NCBI GenBank assembly: GCA_963812015.1
Contig: CAWETI010000003.1
Location: forward strand, 256,001 to 320,000
DNA from: an uncultured delta proteobacterium
Lineage (GTDB): Bacteria > Desulfobacterota > Desulfobaccia > Desulfobaccales > 0-14-0-80-60-11
DNA length: 64,000 bases
Direction: 5' to 3'
The notes under the pieces are model-generated. The model saw nothing but the letters and a program-made list of their open reading frames with translations, had not been told where the DNA came from and did no database searches. Each line of letters opens with the position of its first letter. The stretch's first letter is position 1. Position numbers and translations under genes: made by a program. Below are positions 56,482 to 64,000 of the stretch, one piece after another.

Positions 56482-57414
56482 TTGCCCACGGATATCAAAA
56501 TCGGCACCCGGGGCAGCGCCCTGGCACTGGCCCAGTCCCGGTGGGTGGCGGCTCAGCTCTCCGGGAGCGATCCCGGCTGCCGGGTGGAATTGATCATCAT
56601 CAAGACCACCGGGGATAAGGTGCAAGACGTCCCCTTGGCCCAGATCGGGGGCAAGGGTCTGTTCATCAAGGAGATTGAAGAAGCGCTCCTGAGGGGCCAG
56701 GTGGATCTGGCGGTGCACAGCCTCAAGGATATGCCGGCGGAGGTGCCGGCAGGCCTGATGCTGGGGGCGGTGCCGCCCCGGGAAGATTGCCGGGATGCCT
56801 TCATCTCTTCCCGCTATGCCAGCCTGGTGGAAATTCCCTCCGGGGGCCGGGTCGGCACCGGCAGTCTCCGGCGTCGGGTGCAACTGCTGCATCGGCGGCC
56901 CGACCTGGAAGTAGTGCCCCTGAGAGGCAACGTGGATACCCGCCTGAAAAAGATGGAGGACTTAAATCTGGATGGACTTATCCTGGCCGCAGCCGGGCTT
57001 AATCGGCTGGGGTTGGGTCATATTTACCGCGGGTGCGTGCCCGAATCGGACATGCTGCCGGCCGTGGGCCAGGGAGCCCTGGGCCTGGAGGTGCGCACCG
57101 AGGACCATGGCCTCCGGGAACGGCTGGCGTTTCTGGATGATGCGCCCACCCGCCTGGCGGTGACCGCAGAGCGGGCCTTTCTGGCCCGGCTGGAGGGGGG
57201 GTGCGTGGTGCCGGTGGCGGCCCTGGGGCGGGTGGCAGGGGACTCTCTCCATCTGGAGGCCCTGATCAGCGATCTGGAAGGACGCCGCCTCCTGAAGGAT
57301 CAAAGGTCCGGCCCCGTGGCTGAAGCGGTCAGTTTGGGAATCAGCCTGGCCGAAACTTTGTTGGCCCAGGGCGGGGCGGAAATCTTATCCGCACTGTATG
57401 GGAGGCCGGTTTAA
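56482..57414 (+). CDS. hemC: Hydroxymethylbilane synthase
   Basis: IGTRGSALALAQ, GGKGLF.KE, HSLKD, RGNVDTR and LEGGC. Confidence 0.96.
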   Translation: MPTDIKIGTRGSALALAQSRWVAAQLSGSDPGCRVELIIIKTTGDKVQDVPLAQIGGKGLFIKEIEEALLRGQVDLAVHSLKDMPAEVPAGLMLGAVPPREDCRDAFISSRYASLVEIPSGGRVGTGSLRRRVQLLHRRPDLEVVPLRGNVDTRLKKMEDLNLDGLILAAAGLNRLGLGHIYRGCVPESDMLPAVGQGALGLEVRTEDHGLRERLAFLDDAPTRLAVTAERAFLARLEGGCVVPVAALGRVAGDSLHLEALISDLEGRRLLKDQRSGPVAEAVSLGISLAETLLAQGGAEILSALYGRPV

Positions 57415-60111: not shown

Positions 60112-60762
60112 TCACGCCGGTTTCGGTTCCTCTCCCTCCGGTTCCTTCGGTTCCTCTTCCTCCGGTTCCCGCGGTTTCGGCGCCTTTCCCTCTTTGCCCT
60201 TTTCTTCCGCACTTCGCCCGCCAAAGTAAAACCCGGTGATGGAGGCTAAGGTTGCACCGAGCATACTCAGGACATTACTGATAATTTTCATGGATTCCTG
60301 GTCTTTGCAAAAAGTTAATAAATGAAACATGGCGATGCCCAATATGATGATGACCGCAAAGGCCATCAAGGACCGGGACATCCCGGCAATCCCCGGAGGC
60401 CCTCCTGAGGTTGCCTTGATTAAGCCCTGGAATTCATCTTTGTCCAAACCGTTTAGACTTGCTTTCTCAATCAAGATTCGCCAATTTTTATTGCGGGAGC
60501 GATATGCCAGGATGACGTCGATAATGGTGGGAATCGCAATAAAGAGCGCCAAAATGAGGGCATAGTAAAATATGACGTCGGGATCCTTTTTGGGAACGGG
60601 GGGTGTCTGCCCGGTCTGCCCTTGCTTCTCACCCTGGGTCTGAACTTGAGTTCCCGTTTCCCCTGGATTAGCACTAAAAGCTTGATTCGCACTGGAAACC
60701 GCCAGTACCGCCACCATGGCCAGACACAAGAACAGCCAATAGGATTTCTTCCTCAACTTCAT
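60112..60762 (-). CDS. Hypothetical membrane protein (signal peptide, three TM helices, E/K/P-rich tail)
   Basis: AAGGAGG RBS; hydrophobic segments ending ITGFYFG. Confidence 0.7.
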   Translation of the reverse strand: MKLRKKSYWLFLCLAMVAVLAVSSANQAFSANPGETGTQVQTQGEKQGQTGQTPPVPKKDPDVIFYYALILALFIAIPTIIDVILAYRSRNKNWRILIEKASLNGLDKDEFQGLIKATSGGPPGIAGMSRSLMAFAVIIILGIAMFHLLTFCKDQESMKIISNVLSMLGATLASITGFYFGGRSAEEKGKEGKAPKPREPEEEEPKEPEGEEPKPA

Positions 60763-61094
60763 GGCATTTTCCTCCTTGAGTATGCTTTCCTCGACTCCGG
60801 CTCTCCTGAGCCGGTCCCTGCGGCATGGCAGGGAGTGCGGCCTGCCACCGTTGTCAGCAATACTAATGAAAAAACTGCATAGATTTTTCTATGGAATACT
60901 TTACAGTAAAAGTCAAGGGAATTATGGCCGGTATTTGGGGGCAGTGCCAGGGGGCATCAATCTTTGGCAGGGGCGAGGGTCACCAGGCCCGCAGGGGGAA
61001 AAGGGAAAACTCCCGGATAGGGGATGGGTAGACCCCTAGTAAGATAAGACTGGGGGATGGGGCGGCCTGAGCCTGAAGCCCCTCCCCCCGAACT

Positions 61095-62493
61095 CTACAT
61101 CACTACGATCGGTTCCAGCCCGTCCTTCCAGCCGTCCCACAGATAGGCGTCCAGGCGGCCCATCGCGATAACCCGAAAGGCGTAGCGGGCCTGGGCGGTG
61201 TAGAAGTCGCACAGGGGCGCCGGCGCGTCCAGGCGCCCGTTCATGGCATAGACCTCCGCCGGGCAGGGCGCCCCACAGAAGTGGCGCACCGCGCAGCGGT
61301 TGCAGGGCGCGAAGCCCTCCGTCACCCGGGTGGTTATCTGTTTGAATTGCGGGGTCGCCAGCAACTCCGGCACCGACTGCTCCCAGAGGTTGCCGCCGTG
61401 AAACTCGGTCAGGCCCAGGAATTCGCTGCACGGAGCCACCTCGCCTTTGGCGCCCACCGCAAAGAAACAGCGCCCGCCGCCGCAGGGGGAGATGTCGCAC
61501 ATCAGCCGCCGGGCTCCCGGGGCCACCAGCCCCAACAGCAGGTTGGCAAAGTTGCCGATGACCATTTTGCGCCCGGTCTCCTGAGCTCAGCGCGTAAGTC
61601 CGGTCCAGGGCCGCAAAGAAGAAGTGGGCCAACTCCGTCTGGTCCGGCATCAGGTTCCGGCCGCCCAACTGGGTGCCCCTGACCGGGTTGAGCAGGGCGT
61701 TGGTCACCCCCCGGGCATGGAAAAACTCCACCAGTTCCGGCAGGACCCGGACGTTCTCTTTGGTCACCGTGGCAATGACGTTGAGGCCGGGGTAGTCAAC
61801 CAGCTCCTCCAGGACCTTCACCGTCTGGGCGAAAACCCCGGCGCCGCCCCAGGTGCGGCGGGTGCGGTCGGCCACCTCCGGGGTGGGGCCGTCCAGGGAG
61901 AGCCCGATGCCGACGTTATGGGCCACCAGGAAGTCTTTGGCCTCTTGATCCAGCAGGGTGGCGTTGGTCTGCACCCCGAAGCGGAAGTAGTCGCCATGCT
62001 TCTCGATGCCCTGGAAGACCGCCTCCTTCGCCAGCAGGGGTTCGCTGCCGTGGAACACCAACTGGGGCCGCGCCCCCTCCGGCAGGGTGCCTTTGAAGAA
62101 ATCCTCGAGGAGGGCCAGGGACTCCATCAGGCGGGCCGGCGCCATGTGGGTCCCGGCTTTCCGGGCCTCCCGGGGCAGGTAACAGTAGCCGCAGTCCAGG
62201 TTGCAGCGTTCCGTGGGGTTAAAGTAGACCGCCGACGGCAGCAATCCGAACCGCACGTTGTTAAGGTCCGCAGCCAGACGGGCTTCTTGGGCAAGAAACA
62301 CCTGGGGCAACTCCGGCCCCAGGAGATAGTCCAGGGCCTGGTCCCGGGGGGCCAGCACCCAGAAGGCGGTGTCTGCGTTAATCAGGGCCACAAAGTCCTC
62401 GTGGCCGATCTCCAGCACGTCGAAATGGGGCCCGGCCCCGGCATTCACCGGGACTCCCGCCGGACCCCACAGAGGTGAAACTTCCTGCGCCAT
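61095..62493 (-). pseudogene. cbpB: Peptide-modifying radical SAM/SPASM enzyme (CbpB-like) with a +1 frameshift near 61585
   Basis: CNLDCGYC, FHGSEP and QTN in ORF 62493-61036; SPASM motifs (CDISPCGGGRCF, C..C..RHFCGAPCP) in overlapping ORF 61565-61095; may be a sequencing error. Confidence 0.82.
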
Positions 62494-62495
62494 GC

Positions 62496-62615
62496 CTACT
62501 TGGCCTTCTTGGCGTCGGCCATGAGGTAATGGGACAGGCCCACCTGATCGCCGTTGGGGGCGCAGGTGTAGCGGATGCTGATGGGTTTCACCTTACTACT
62601 CTTAGATTTCTGCAT
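62496..62615 (-). CDS. cbpA: Short RiPP precursor peptide (CbpA-like), 39 aa
   Basis: MQKSKSSKVKPISIRYTCAPNGDQVGLSHYLMADAKKAK; AGGAGG RBS; R..C....GLSHY.M motif; ends 2 nt before the radical SAM gene. Confidence 0.82.
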   Translation of the reverse strand: MQKSKSSKVKPISIRYTCAPNGDQVGLSHYLMADAKKAK

Positions 62616-62690
62616 ATACATGTCCTCCTTCCTCGTGTGGTTTGCCGGGGTCAAGCGAAAACCGCGACCACCGGGGTGTAAGCTCTGTGT

Positions 62691-62754
62691 CTCACGCCAA
62701 GGCGCTAAGCTCGCCAAGAATTTTTGCCTTTGCGCCTCAGCGTCTTTGCGTGAG
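62691..62754. repeat. Palindromic repeat (CACGC.AAG.CGC type)
   Basis: CTCACGCCAAGGCGCTAAG..CTCAGCGTCTTTGCGTGAG. Confidence 0.55.
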
Positions 62755-62784
62755 CAAAATGTAGTGTGGGCACTGCCCCCCAAC

Positions 62785-62816
62785 AAAAAAAGAGTCCCAT
62801 CCCTCGGATGGAACTC
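62785..62816 (-). terminator. Intrinsic terminator, probable riboswitch expression platform
   Basis: Minus strand GAGTTCCATCC-GAG-GGATGGGACTC then T7. Confidence 0.75.
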
Positions 62817-62860
62817 CCTTTACCATCAGGAGTAGCCGTTCATACAAACTTACAAAAACA

Positions 62861-63023
62861 CCAGGCAGGTCTTCTGGCTCTCGGATCAGCCGGAGAACGT
62901 CAGCCTTCCCACCGGGGTTTTTCCTCAGTCCCCGGCAGTGGCCGGCTTGCGCCTTAACTTTCTCCGTCCCCGATTACAGCGGCGGGACCGCCCCGGATTC
63001 ACACCGGGTTCCGGATTGCCTGG
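62861..63023 (-). ncRNA. Cobalamin (B12) riboswitch
   Basis: Minus strand GGAA-CCCGGTGTGAATCCGGG-GCGGTCCCGCCGCTGTAA..GCCACTG..GGGAAGG..AGCCAGAAGACCTGCC (B12 box); P1 CCAGGCA/TGCCTGG. Confidence 0.92.
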
Positions 63024-63044
63024 AGGTTTAATTTTCTGACTGAA

Positions 63045-63073
63045 TGATTAACACGATGGTCCCGGTTTGTCAA
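63045..63073 (-). promoter_or_regulatory. Sigma70-type promoter upstream of the riboswitch
   Basis: TTGACA-N17-TAATCA on the minus strand. Confidence 0.5.
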
Positions 63074-63201
63074 GCCGGTGGCCTGAGCGCTCATGCTTCC
63101 CCCGGAGAGATCCGTCTCGCCGCAAATCACCTTGACAGCTCAGCCCCTTAAAGGTTATTTTTATCTTTTTAACTATATAAGCAAGATTCTGAGATTAACC
63201 T

Positions 63202-64000
63202 ATGATCAAAGCGATTCGCGGCATGCGGGATATTCTGCCGCCGGACACCGCCCGGTGGCAGTGGGTGGAGGCCGTGGCCCGGGAGGTTTTTGACCTCTAC
63301 GGCTACAAGGAGGTCCGCCTGCCCCTGCTCGAGCGCACCGAGCTCTTCGCCCGGTCCATCGGCGTCGAGACCGACATTGTGGCCAAGGAGATGTACACCT
63401 TCCCCGACCGCAAGGGCGAGTTCCTGACCCTCAGGCCCGAGGCCACCGCCTCGGTGCTCCGGGCCGTCCTGGAAAACCGCCTGGACAAAGGCGCCGGGGT
63501 CAAGAAATTCTATACCCTGGGGCCCATGTTCCGCTACGAGCGGCCCCAAAAGGGACGCTTTCGCCAGTTTTTTCAGATCAACTGCGAGGCCTACGGGGTG
63601 GAGGCGCCGGAACTGGACGTGGAAGTCATCCTGCTCCTCATGCATATCCTCAAACGGCTGCTGCCGGGGGAGATCCGCCTGCTCGTCAATTCCCTGGGCT
63701 GCCCCGACTGCCAGGTGAAGTTCAAGGCGGCCCTGGGGTTGTTCCTGATTAACAAAGAAGACCTGTGCGAGGACTGCCTGCGGCGCCGAACCACCAACCC
63801 CCTCAGGGTCCTGGACTGCAAGAGCGCCAACTGCCAGGCGATTTTGCAGAATGCTCCCGTGATCCGGGATTATCTCTGTCCCGATTGCGCCGCCCATTTT
63901 AGCCGGGTGCTGGAGCTGTTGGACCGGTTCAACGTGGCTTACGTGGTCCAGCCCAAGCTGGTCCGGGGTCTGGATTACTACACCCGCACCGCCTTCGAAG
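63202..64000 (+). CDS. hisS: Histidine-tRNA ligase, 3'-truncated by the window
   Basis: Manual translation: MIKAIRGMRDILP, KEMYTF, LRPEATAS, MFRYERPQKGRFRQF and LVRGLDYYT. Confidence 0.96.
   Translation, partial: MIKAIRGMRDILPPDTARWQWVEAVAREVFDLYGYKEVRLPLLERTELFARSIGVETDIVAKEMYTFPDRKGEFLTLRPEATASVLRAVLENRLDKGAGVKKFYTLGPMFRYERPQKGRFRQFFQINCEAYGVEAPELDVEVILLLMHILKRLLPGEIRLLVNSLGCPDCQVKFKAALGLFLINKEDLCEDCLRRRTTNPLRVLDCKSANCQAILQNAPVIRDYLCPDCAAHFSRVLELLDRFNVAYVVQPKLVRGLDYYTRTAFE

Follow-up and report, generated by a model that had tools for sequence, protein, structure and literature searches.

Short ribosomal peptides encoded beside a radical S-adenosylmethionine (radical SAM) enzyme with a SPASM domain are found in the PqqA/PqqE and MftA/MftC systems, both of which give an intracellular product and have no exporter. 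The clusters of these two systems also include peptidases and further tailoring genes. The cassette described here consists of the precursor peptide CbpA and the radical SAM/SPASM enzyme CbpB, encoded behind a cobalamin (B12) riboswitch in a 64,000-nucleotide (nt) stretch of DNA, referred to as the window, which covers C3:256001-320000 of a 3.96 Mb, 6-contig genome assembly from an uncultured bacterium of the Desulfobaccales (GCA_963812015.1). It differs from PqqA/PqqE and MftA/MftC in that no peptidase or tailoring gene is conserved beside cbpAB and nothing shows CbpA to be cut. The closest enzyme of solved structure is CteB (PDB 5wgg/5why), a thioether-forming radical SAM/SPASM enzyme with an N-terminal RRE (recognition element of RiPPs, peptides made on the ribosome and modified after translation). 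CteB ranks first among solved chains by sequence (E 2.7e-16) and by fold (template modeling score, TM, 0.65-0.72 over a full-length alignment that includes the N-terminal domain). Identity to CteB is 18-19%, however, and in place of a Cys-rich core CbpA has a single Cys in 68 of 77 peptides.

The names CbpA and CbpB were given in a preliminary description of this DNA, and they proved right on searching the NCBIfam hidden Markov models (TIGR04164 is CbpA, short name cobo_pep; TIGR04163 is CbpB, short name rSAM_cobopep). The family is already catalogued and named, the copy in the window is a typical one with nothing new about it, and the "cobo" of the model name suggests that the link with the riboswitch is known to the curators. 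So far as full-text literature searching reached, the pair is uncharacterized, as had been supposed; no paper on it was found, and supplements to radical SAM surveys (e.g., PMC10288494) may list the family. The locus resembles the TIGR04163/TIGR04164 pair in its full-length model coverage, gene order, and peptide motif, with a riboswitch as in at least 75 related loci, and departs from it in a cbpB gene split by a 1-nt insertion and a peptide score of 33.7 versus 35 bits. On balance, the favored reading is that this copy is an ordinary CbpA/CbpB cassette, probably disabled in this genome, and that its product is an intracellular peptide of corrinoid supply and not one of cobalt capture.

Distribution and genomic setting of the cassette

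A protein search gave 1460 matches at E <= 1e-20 among 8000 scored candidates, with a typical length of 465 amino acids (aa), and NCBI labels several of the close homologs CbpB (from metagenome-assembled genomes, MAGs, of Desulfobaccales, Syntrophobacterales, and Thermodesulfobacteriota). When one genome per species was scanned, at least 596 stretches matched and at least 503 encoded a CbpB relative. The best 80 were kept as loci L021-L100, of which L021-L046 form a close group (70-92% identity to P0004, an intact homolog that heads the query alignment) and L047-L100 a distant group (50-60%). The distant loci carry the labels Planctomycetota, Nitrospinota, Acidobacteriota, Chloroflexota/Dehalococcoidia, Kiritimatiellota, Elusimicrobiales, Actinomycetota, Poribacteria, Desulfobulbales, and Syntrophobacterales. 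Candidate carriers in culture are Desulfacinum hydrothermale DSM 13146 (L091), Hydrosulfovibrio ferrireducens CB1MN (L071), and Desulfobacca acetoxidans. A cbpA-type peptide is encoded ahead of cbpB in every one of the 77 loci whose sequence extends upstream of it, the other three (L038, L066, and L083) starting inside or at cbpB, and all 50 peptides sampled beside CbpB homologs match TIGR04164 (E <= 0.001). The conservation of the peptide beside its enzyme, which the preliminary description had proposed to check, therefore holds.

The riboswitch is nearly as constant as the peptide. A match to the Rfam Cobalamin family lies just upstream on the same strand in 18 of the 19 loci to which Rfam was applied (L098 has none). 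An nhmmer profile built from these matches, and biased towards the cbpA-type riboswitch, places one within 900 nt upstream of cbpB in 72 of the 80 loci. The remaining eight comprise four loci cut by contig ends (L038, L066, L070, and L083), three in which the riboswitch stands at the head of a cob operon (L075, L078, and L100), and L098, so that a riboswitch heads the cbpAB unit in 75 of 76 usable loci. As a trio, riboswitch, peptide, and enzyme are kept together in many phyla.

Little else accompanies the trio. The 3719 open reading frames (ORFs) within 7 kb either side of cbpB in the 80 loci and the window were clustered all-against-all, and no partner gene is common to the close and distant groups besides cbpB itself and antisense shadows. 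No exporter, protease, immunity gene, chelatase, or cobalt transporter recurs in this span, and neither the leader protease nor the exporter that would mark the cluster of an exported RiPP was found. Synteny in the close group is of housekeeping genes (hisS, aspS, prs, sfsA, and hemC). Among the 54 distant loci, Pfam annotation of 89 cluster representatives places B12 genes around cbpAB in seven (L075, L078, L081, L089, L090, L094, and L100), encoding CbiC, CbiA, CbiB, CobQ, CobU, CobT, CobS, BtuR, or BtuF-like proteins. The genes of L075, L078, and L100 lie on one strand in the order cobD/cobQ, (cbiB, btuR), cbiA, cbiC, cbpA, cbpB, and those of L089 follow the order riboswitch, cbpA, cbpB, cobU, cobT, cobS ... 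cobQ, btuF-like, btuR. The genes cobU-cobT-cobS adjoin cbpAB in L090 and L094, and L081 has a divergent cbi operon. Four cobalamin riboswitch matches share one 4.3-kb stretch of the latter locus (L081:2995-7233), one at cbpAB, one at the divergent cbi operon, and two downstream.

The distribution of cbpB relative to B12 pathway genes bears on the choice between a role with cobalt and one with corrinoids. Thirty cbpB carriers were picked for diversity and are not a random sample; CbiC (PF02570) is present in 22 of them. The eight carriers that lack it (G041, G046, G049, G051, G052, G053, G055, and G058, two of which are 9.3 and 9.6 Mb in size) also lack CbiD (0/8) and CbiJ (0/8), the latter being present in three of four CbiC-positive controls, and seven of the eight retain CobS. 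The joint loss of three ring markers with a late gene kept is not what random gaps would yield, and from their gene content these carriers look like corrinoid salvagers. Since salvage-only carriers insert no cobalt, cobalt capture cannot be the general function of the cassette. Among 41 related genomes, which are not independent counts, cbpB and CbiC occur together in 28 and are both absent from six, three have cbpB only (all 73-86% complete), and four have CbiC only, including G031 (99% complete) and G034 (93% complete). The patterns in relatives and sampled carriers together indicate that cbpAB is an accessory to B12 metabolism that is neither needed for nor confined to ring synthesis. The genome of the window has CbiC, and its owner is therefore probably a corrinoid producer. 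The preliminary description had suggested a peptide for cobalt scavenging or corrinoid handling. The first of these functions is disfavored by the eight carriers without ring markers, and the second stays plausible and is strengthened by the seven loci in cob or cbi operons.

The peptide, its enzyme, and a frameshift

The sequence of the window reads, on the minus strand, promoter-like site, Cobalamin riboswitch, terminator, Shine-Dalgarno sequence, cbpA, and cbpB, and every element first described is present at its place:

63044..63073, minus strand: promoter-like site, TTGACA, 18 nt, AATCAT (consensus scan, 10/12 positions matched)
62847..63038, minus strand: Cobalamin riboswitch aptamer, RF00174 (Rfam 80.6 bits, E 2.9e-18, model 1-189 of 189)
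62810..62837, minus strand: expression-platform hairpin (P13-like), 6-8 bp stem, 9-nt loop GAUGGUAAA at 62827-62819
62785..62821, minus strand: intrinsic terminator, 16-bp hairpin, 3-nt loop, U7 (RNAfold, about -21 kcal/mol)
62631..62784, minus strand: leader spacer, with a palindromic stretch variable among close relatives and then a block of ~60 nt conserved next to the ribosome-binding site
62624..62629, minus strand: Shine-Dalgarno sequence AGGAGG, 8 nt ahead of the second ATG, kept in close loci
62496..62615, minus strand: cbpA, 39-aa precursor, stop included (TIGR04164 33.7 bits, E 1.8e-8, profile 1-25 of 25)
61588..62493, minus strand: cbpB first frame, which encodes the radical SAM core and, N-terminal to it, an RRE-like domain (TIGR04163 360.4 bits, profile 2-280)
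62205-62182, minus strand: radical SAM motif CX3CX2C (sequence; PF04055 55.1 bits)
61587..61587, minus strand: extra base that shifts the cbpB frame (absent from the X2, X3, and X15 contigs)
61095..61586, minus strand: cbpB second frame, which encodes the bridging region and a SPASM domain whose seven motif cysteines are all present (TIGR04163 218.7 bits, profile 287-428)

The junction between cbpA and cbpB reads TAG, GC, ATG, leaving a gap of 2 nt. Because the second ATG alone is conserved in relatives and is well spaced from the Shine-Dalgarno sequence, 39 aa is the right length for CbpA, as had been proposed together with its core. The TIGR04164 score (33.7 bits for 39 aa, 33.5 bits for 41 aa) falls short of the curated cut-off of 35 by 1.3 bits. 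The core motif can be written as R-x-x-C, 5-7 residues, G-L-S-H-Y, and two aliphatic residues, and is found in the peptide of the window as R15, C18, G26-L27-S28-H29-Y30, and then L31 and M32; of these, R15, C18, G26, L27, and H29 are invariant. These statistics cover 77 sequences, one from the window and the rest from 76 loci (the pattern omitted L062), with 78 units in all, and the Arg at -3 from Cys, the Cys, the Gly, the Leu, and the His are present in every unit. The spacer from Cys to Gly is 5 residues in 19 units, 6 in 6, and 7 in 53. CbpA of the window belongs to the Desulfobaccales-type subgroup with a 7-residue spacer, and an identical peptide occurs in L021. Ser is replaced by Ala in L076 and L078 (GLAHY) and Tyr by Phe in L062:384-482 (GLSHF), variants that suggest that the Tyr and Ser hydroxyls may be dispensable, and the Met of the core is Leu in most lineages. 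Of the Cys, His, Tyr, and Met of the core to which attention was first drawn, Cys and His are invariant and Tyr and Met are not.

Besides the many peptides with one Cys, eight have two and one has five; the several Cys donors of sactipeptide and ranthipeptide (SCIFF-type) systems are thus absent from most of the family. A single precursor ORF in L090 (L090:9765-9947) holds two complete tandem units, each with its recognition strand, Cys, and GLSHY. No signal peptide or double-glycine leader is visible in the CbpA peptides, the flanks of which are short, Lys-rich, and variable.

CbpB is encoded once in the genome of the window. Taken singly, its two ORFs score 360.4 and 218.7 bits against a TIGR04163 cut-off of 375 bits, and the next-best curated families are far lower (AmcB, 92 bits; PapB, 85 bits). 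The second frame (listed as ORF 61095-61565) matches SPASM models (TIGR04085, 50.7 bits; PF13186, 29.9 bits), and the radical SAM and SPASM cysteines, all of them present, do not vary within alignment A1. The intact homolog P0004, modeled with AlphaFold2 from an alignment of 13 sequences, stands in for the split enzyme of the window. The model has a mean pLDDT (predicted local distance difference test) of 76, with three strands and two helices over residues 25-81, followed by the radical SAM barrel and the SPASM region. Foldseek places CteB (5why/5wgg) first and full-length, then TigE, anSME, ChlB, SuiB, and SkfB, with PqqE also among the matches. A gene of the FMN_red family (PF03358, NADPH-dependent FMN reductases) lies 3' of cbpB on the same strand in 12 Desulfurivibrionaceae-type loci (e.g., L060:11307-12104; median distance, 73 nt), and its product may be the reductant for CbpB. 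As a general partner of cbpAB it was rejected, being confined to one lineage of 12 loci.

Prediction of the CbpB-CbpA complex gave a score of 0.75 versus 0.01 for the best control, with at least 73% contact agreement between runs and a partner pLDDT of at least 49. The same mark was attained by 116 of the 157 complexes of solved structure, against 2 of the 215 mismatched pairs, counts that apply only roughly since custom alignments were used for this prediction. Since complexes of like kind have been solved (CteB, SuiB, and ChlB), the high score may reflect likeness. Peptide residues 9-19 are predicted to contact enzyme residues 33-34, 45-49, 52, 56, and 69-79, and peptide residues 26-28 to lie near the barrel and the bridging region. 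In the model, CbpB would grip CbpA through its N-terminal RRE-like domain, the strand before the Cys ([IV]-x-[YIF]-R-x-x-C) adding to the third beta strand of that domain, and the predicted docking on an N-terminal beta sheet is of the same kind as in CteB. Such docking would fit the pattern of conservation, the [IV]-x-[YIF]-R strand being the recognition element, with one per unit in L090. CbpB would then make one radical SAM modification of CbpA, most likely an intramolecular cross-link from the invariant Cys to the G-L-[S/A]-H-[Y/F] sequence 5-7 residues on. A thioether from the single Cys is the first guess, at a little under even confidence, and a cyclophane on His or on Tyr/Phe is the second.

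The preliminary description implied a frameshift in cbpB, and the assembly does contain one extra base, at 61587. Among the 41 related genomes, 29 have a CbpB match above the cut-off (577-673 bits), and none is split at this site; cbpB of G002 and G006 is cut by contig ends. Assembled contigs from the probable source run (X1) and from three other runs (X2, X3, and X15, the last an RNA run) were aligned to the window, uncovered bins being uninformative in X2, X3, and X15. Each of these three has one contig over 61587, and each lacks one base there, restoring the reading of the relatives (...ALAQETGRKMVIGNF...). The X1 contig covers 61587 at a depth of about 8 and retains the extra base, which lies outside any homopolymer.

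A real and recent disruption is the probable explanation. The insertion, if real, leaves the radical SAM core and the SPASM domain unjoined, so that the cassette is probably inactive in this genome. Less probably, the extra base comes from a mistake in the reads or the assembly, and the organism has an intact cbpB. That explanation would suit the otherwise undamaged state of both halves (360 and 219 bits, with all cysteines present), an assembly of just 6 contigs (in G014, another relative assembled into few contigs, the matches to CbiC are split and those to cbpB truncated), and an unplaced one-letter shortfall of the X1 contig relative to the window within 61458-63100. It accords poorly with the X1 coverage at 61587, which is free of the deletion seen in X2, X3, and X15, with the position of the base outside a homopolymer, and with the single open frame of each of hisS, prs, sfsA, and hemC in the window. 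In three related assemblies the match to CbiC falls into adjacent pieces (G014:C3:106080-106665, G011:C21:55916-56499, and G002:C149:5582-6061). These are probably frameshifts or assembly errors, and they bear on the trust to be placed in single-base indels of these MAGs.

Riboswitch control and neighboring genes

The RF00174 match exceeds the gathering score of 31.5 bits and is the sole Rfam match within the window, so the proposed check on the identity of the riboswitch had a clear outcome. Its L5 loop is UCCCG. The promoter-like site lies 6 nt upstream of the riboswitch match, and it is one of three such sites in 60700-63250, where shuffles give 0.6. The loop of the hairpin that follows the aptamer is GNRA-like and conserved among leaders, with A, G, G, A, and A invariant (NAUGGNAAN). 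Its stem is supported by covariation across 65 distinct sequences: 79.1% of cells are paired versus 63.1% in shuffles, all 7 pairs vary on both sides, and there are 72 double changes versus 27 in shuffles. The observed values were reached by 0 of 500 shuffles, and slid controls gave at most 55%. A simple scan of 60700-63250 omitted the main terminator, which RNAfold recovered, and related loci have a hairpin and a U-run at the equivalent position. The 3' strand of the first hairpin forms part of the 5' arm of the terminator in the window and in 55 of 73 leaders under minimum-energy folding. In the close group the hairpin alone is worth -6 to -9 kcal/mol versus -19 to -25 for the terminator, and as the hairpin is so much the weaker, termination should be the default state.

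The leader spacer, compared in an alignment of 22 close loci, has no Rfam family match between 62631 and 62784, and in the X2 contig 103 nt of it are replaced by 78 different nt. In L041 and L046 the riboswitch and cbpB are 830-890 nt apart, against a usual distance of about 350-490 nt, a difference suggestive of leader insertions. A wetland metatranscriptome contig (X15 record 15) runs across cbpA into the beginning of cbpB (window 62335-62635). It comes from a relative, differing by 22 letters and 2 gaps over 301 window bases, and is compatible with co-transcription without being proof of transcription.

Procknow et al. (2023, mBio, PMC10653944) dissected two corrinoid switches with which this leader can be compared. 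In the repressing P. megaterium metE switch, a separate antiterminator forms when P13 is absent. The cobT switch of A. halodurans is an activating one, in which exclusion of the terminator is due to P13 itself, and cobinamide gives 8-fold activation. The cbpA leader is like both in its transcriptional platform with a hairpin between aptamer and intrinsic terminator, and like the cobT switch in that the 3' strand of the hairpin belongs to the terminator. Its difference from them is that the NAUGGNAAN loop gives no clear 4-5 bp kissing pair with the L5 sequence UCCCG. No convincing L5-L13 pair was found among the leaders (L5 was recovered in 53 of 73, with no clear rule); the variant UCCCA occurs with a CAUGG loop in 3 loci, and ACCCG occurs with the loops GAAGG, GACGG, and GAUGG. 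Another candidate P13, with the stem GAUGG/CCAUC and a loop containing GGGA, was rejected because it is confined to the close group and unconserved elsewhere.

The sign of control by B12 is not readable from the architecture of the RNA. The genome of the window has four other cobalamin riboswitches, upstream of TonB-receptor, cbiK, 67-aa HMA, and FecCD permease genes, and the hairpin overlaps the terminator in all four; so it does in five of six non-cbpA riboswitches of the fetched loci, which include cob operon heads. With nine of ten controls before uptake and biosynthesis genes showing it, the overlap is general to these riboswitches and cannot separate activation from repression, and it was rejected as evidence for an ON switch. 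Repression by B12, which the preliminary description assumed, is nonetheless rated rather likely, because it is the classical expectation and because cbpAB are co-transcribed with ring-synthesis genes in L075, L078, and L100. Activation is the doubtful alternative: a corrinoid, perhaps an incomplete one such as cobinamide, would stabilize the hairpin, block the terminator, and turn on cbpAB to finish the cofactor. The shared strand of a covarying hairpin, its weakness beside a terminator expected to form by default, and the precedent of the cobT switch would all suit activation. They are offset by the same overlap before TonB-receptor, cbiK, HMA, and FecCD permease genes, whose functions are classically B12-repressed, and at cob operon heads; by the single riboswitch that serves cbpAB and ring synthesis in three loci; by the lack of an established L5-L13 kissing pair; and by the statement in PMC10653944 that numerous coupling mechanisms are likely among corrinoid riboswitches. 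Activation concerns the sign of control only and can be combined with the corrinoid-supply reading.

Two of the other riboswitches of this genome merit description. In the TonB-receptor leader (L101; G000:C2:1646551-1646738 and downstream), one hairpin has the GAUGGCAAA loop found in the cbpA leaders, and a second hairpin and then a terminator come after it; the loop motif is therefore not specific to cbpA. The 67-aa HMA (CopZ-like) gene (L103:876-1076) lies ~420 nt downstream of the riboswitch at G000:C2 282304-282489, and its product may be a B12-regulated cobalt chaperone.

Beyond the leader, the cassette is flanked by hisS. On the opposite side, from cbpB outward, lie genes for a 216-aa membrane protein, prs, sfsA, an unknown gene, hemC, a SIS protein, and GH57. 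Family searches of the neighbors from 51.4 kb to the window end found no transporter, protease, or chelatase, in keeping with what was first noted. The nearest of these genes is the following:

60112-60762, minus strand: predicted membrane protein of 216 aa, N-terminus signal-like (without matches in Pfam or NCBIfam)

An ORF related to it lies 3' of cbpB in 16 close loci, and the gene is probably a separate transcription unit because a hairpin and a 333-nt spacer precede it. The hemC gene (porphobilinogen deaminase, of the tetrapyrrole pathway; 56482-57414, plus strand) is 3.7 kb from cbpB and syntenic in 13 close loci, which probably reflects the synteny of the lineage and not a functional link.

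A role in corrinoid supply

Under the favored reading, modified CbpA would be neither cut out nor exported and would work inside the cell in corrinoid supply, whether in late assembly, salvage, or handling. A more specific and rather speculative version would make CbpA/CbpB a new component of cobamide metabolism in salvagers and producers alike, with a cytoplasmic cross-linked peptide that handles corrinoids directly, possibly through a His or Cys axial ligand or by delivery to the nucleotide-loop enzymes, and that is possibly induced by incomplete corrinoids through an activating riboswitch. Several points count against corrinoid supply by a cassette now disabled. Every step is computational only. 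Most cassettes are solitary, a cob operon setting being seen in 7 of 54 distant loci and 0 of 26 close loci, and the completeness of the eight salvage-only genomes is not given. The co-occurrence of cbpB and CbiC among the 41 relatives would also fit de novo synthesis or cobalt supply, and genes for an exporter or protease may lie elsewhere in the genome. CbpA lies below its curated cut-off. The linked residues are a guess, as the nearest curated families (AmcB and PapB) mix thioether and cyclophane formers, and the unplaced letter in the X1 contig makes an assembly error near the frameshift possible.

The same evidence bears on three other functions. A cross-linked Cys/His/Tyr peptide that binds Co2+ and feeds a cobaltochelatase at low B12 would account for the invariant Cys and His of the core and for CbiC in 28 of the 31 cbpB-positive relatives, and the riboswitches before cbiK and the HMA gene put cobalt handling within the local B12 regulon. 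Such a cobalt scavenger or chaperone is nevertheless improbable, given that eight of 30 carriers appear to have neither ring synthesis nor cobalt insertion and that seven of these keep CobS. Moreover, L089, L090, and L094 place the pair with cobU-cobT-cobS, together with a BtuF-like gene, that is, with salvage and nucleotide-loop steps; the 80 loci have no conserved neighboring chelatase or cobalt transporter; and two nearly complete relatives, G031 and G034, have CbiC without cbpB. Still less probable is a device that spares B12, in which the peptide or a cofactor derived from it would replace or bypass a B12-dependent function and be repressed by B12 like metE or nrd. Solitary cassettes behind their own riboswitch do resemble B12-independent isozymes, and peptide-derived cofactors made by SPASM enzymes exist in PQQ and mycofactocin. 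The pair nonetheless lies inside cob/cbi or salvage operons at seven loci, has no peptidase or extra tailoring gene conserved alongside, and follows the presence of B12 pathway genes, not their absence.

An exported RiPP, either a secreted corrinoid scavenger or an antimicrobial peptide, is the least probable of the three. A precursor beside a maturase with a leader-binding domain is the architecture of RiPP natural products, and the two tandem core units of the L090 precursor would be in keeping with it. Against this, the 80 loci show no conserved exporter, protease, or immunity gene next to cbpAB, the peptides with their short flanks have no visible export signal, and the modeled RRE-binding strand stands directly before the Cys, leaving little separate leader to remove.

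The functional reading of CbpA/CbpB should accordingly move from cobalt to corrinoids. What is new here is comparative, namely the presence of cbpAB in genomes without ring synthesis and its placement in the cob operons of several phyla, to which is added a caution against reading the sign of regulation from the overlap of hairpin and terminator. The cassette is widespread, occurring in at least 503 species genomes of many anaerobic and some other phyla, with a B12 riboswitch nearly always attached. If the peptide does prove to act in salvaging or assembling corrinoids, a pathway regarded as completely mapped would gain a ribosomally made component, with consequences for predicting whether a given uncultured microbe makes B12, finishes it, or is just a consumer.

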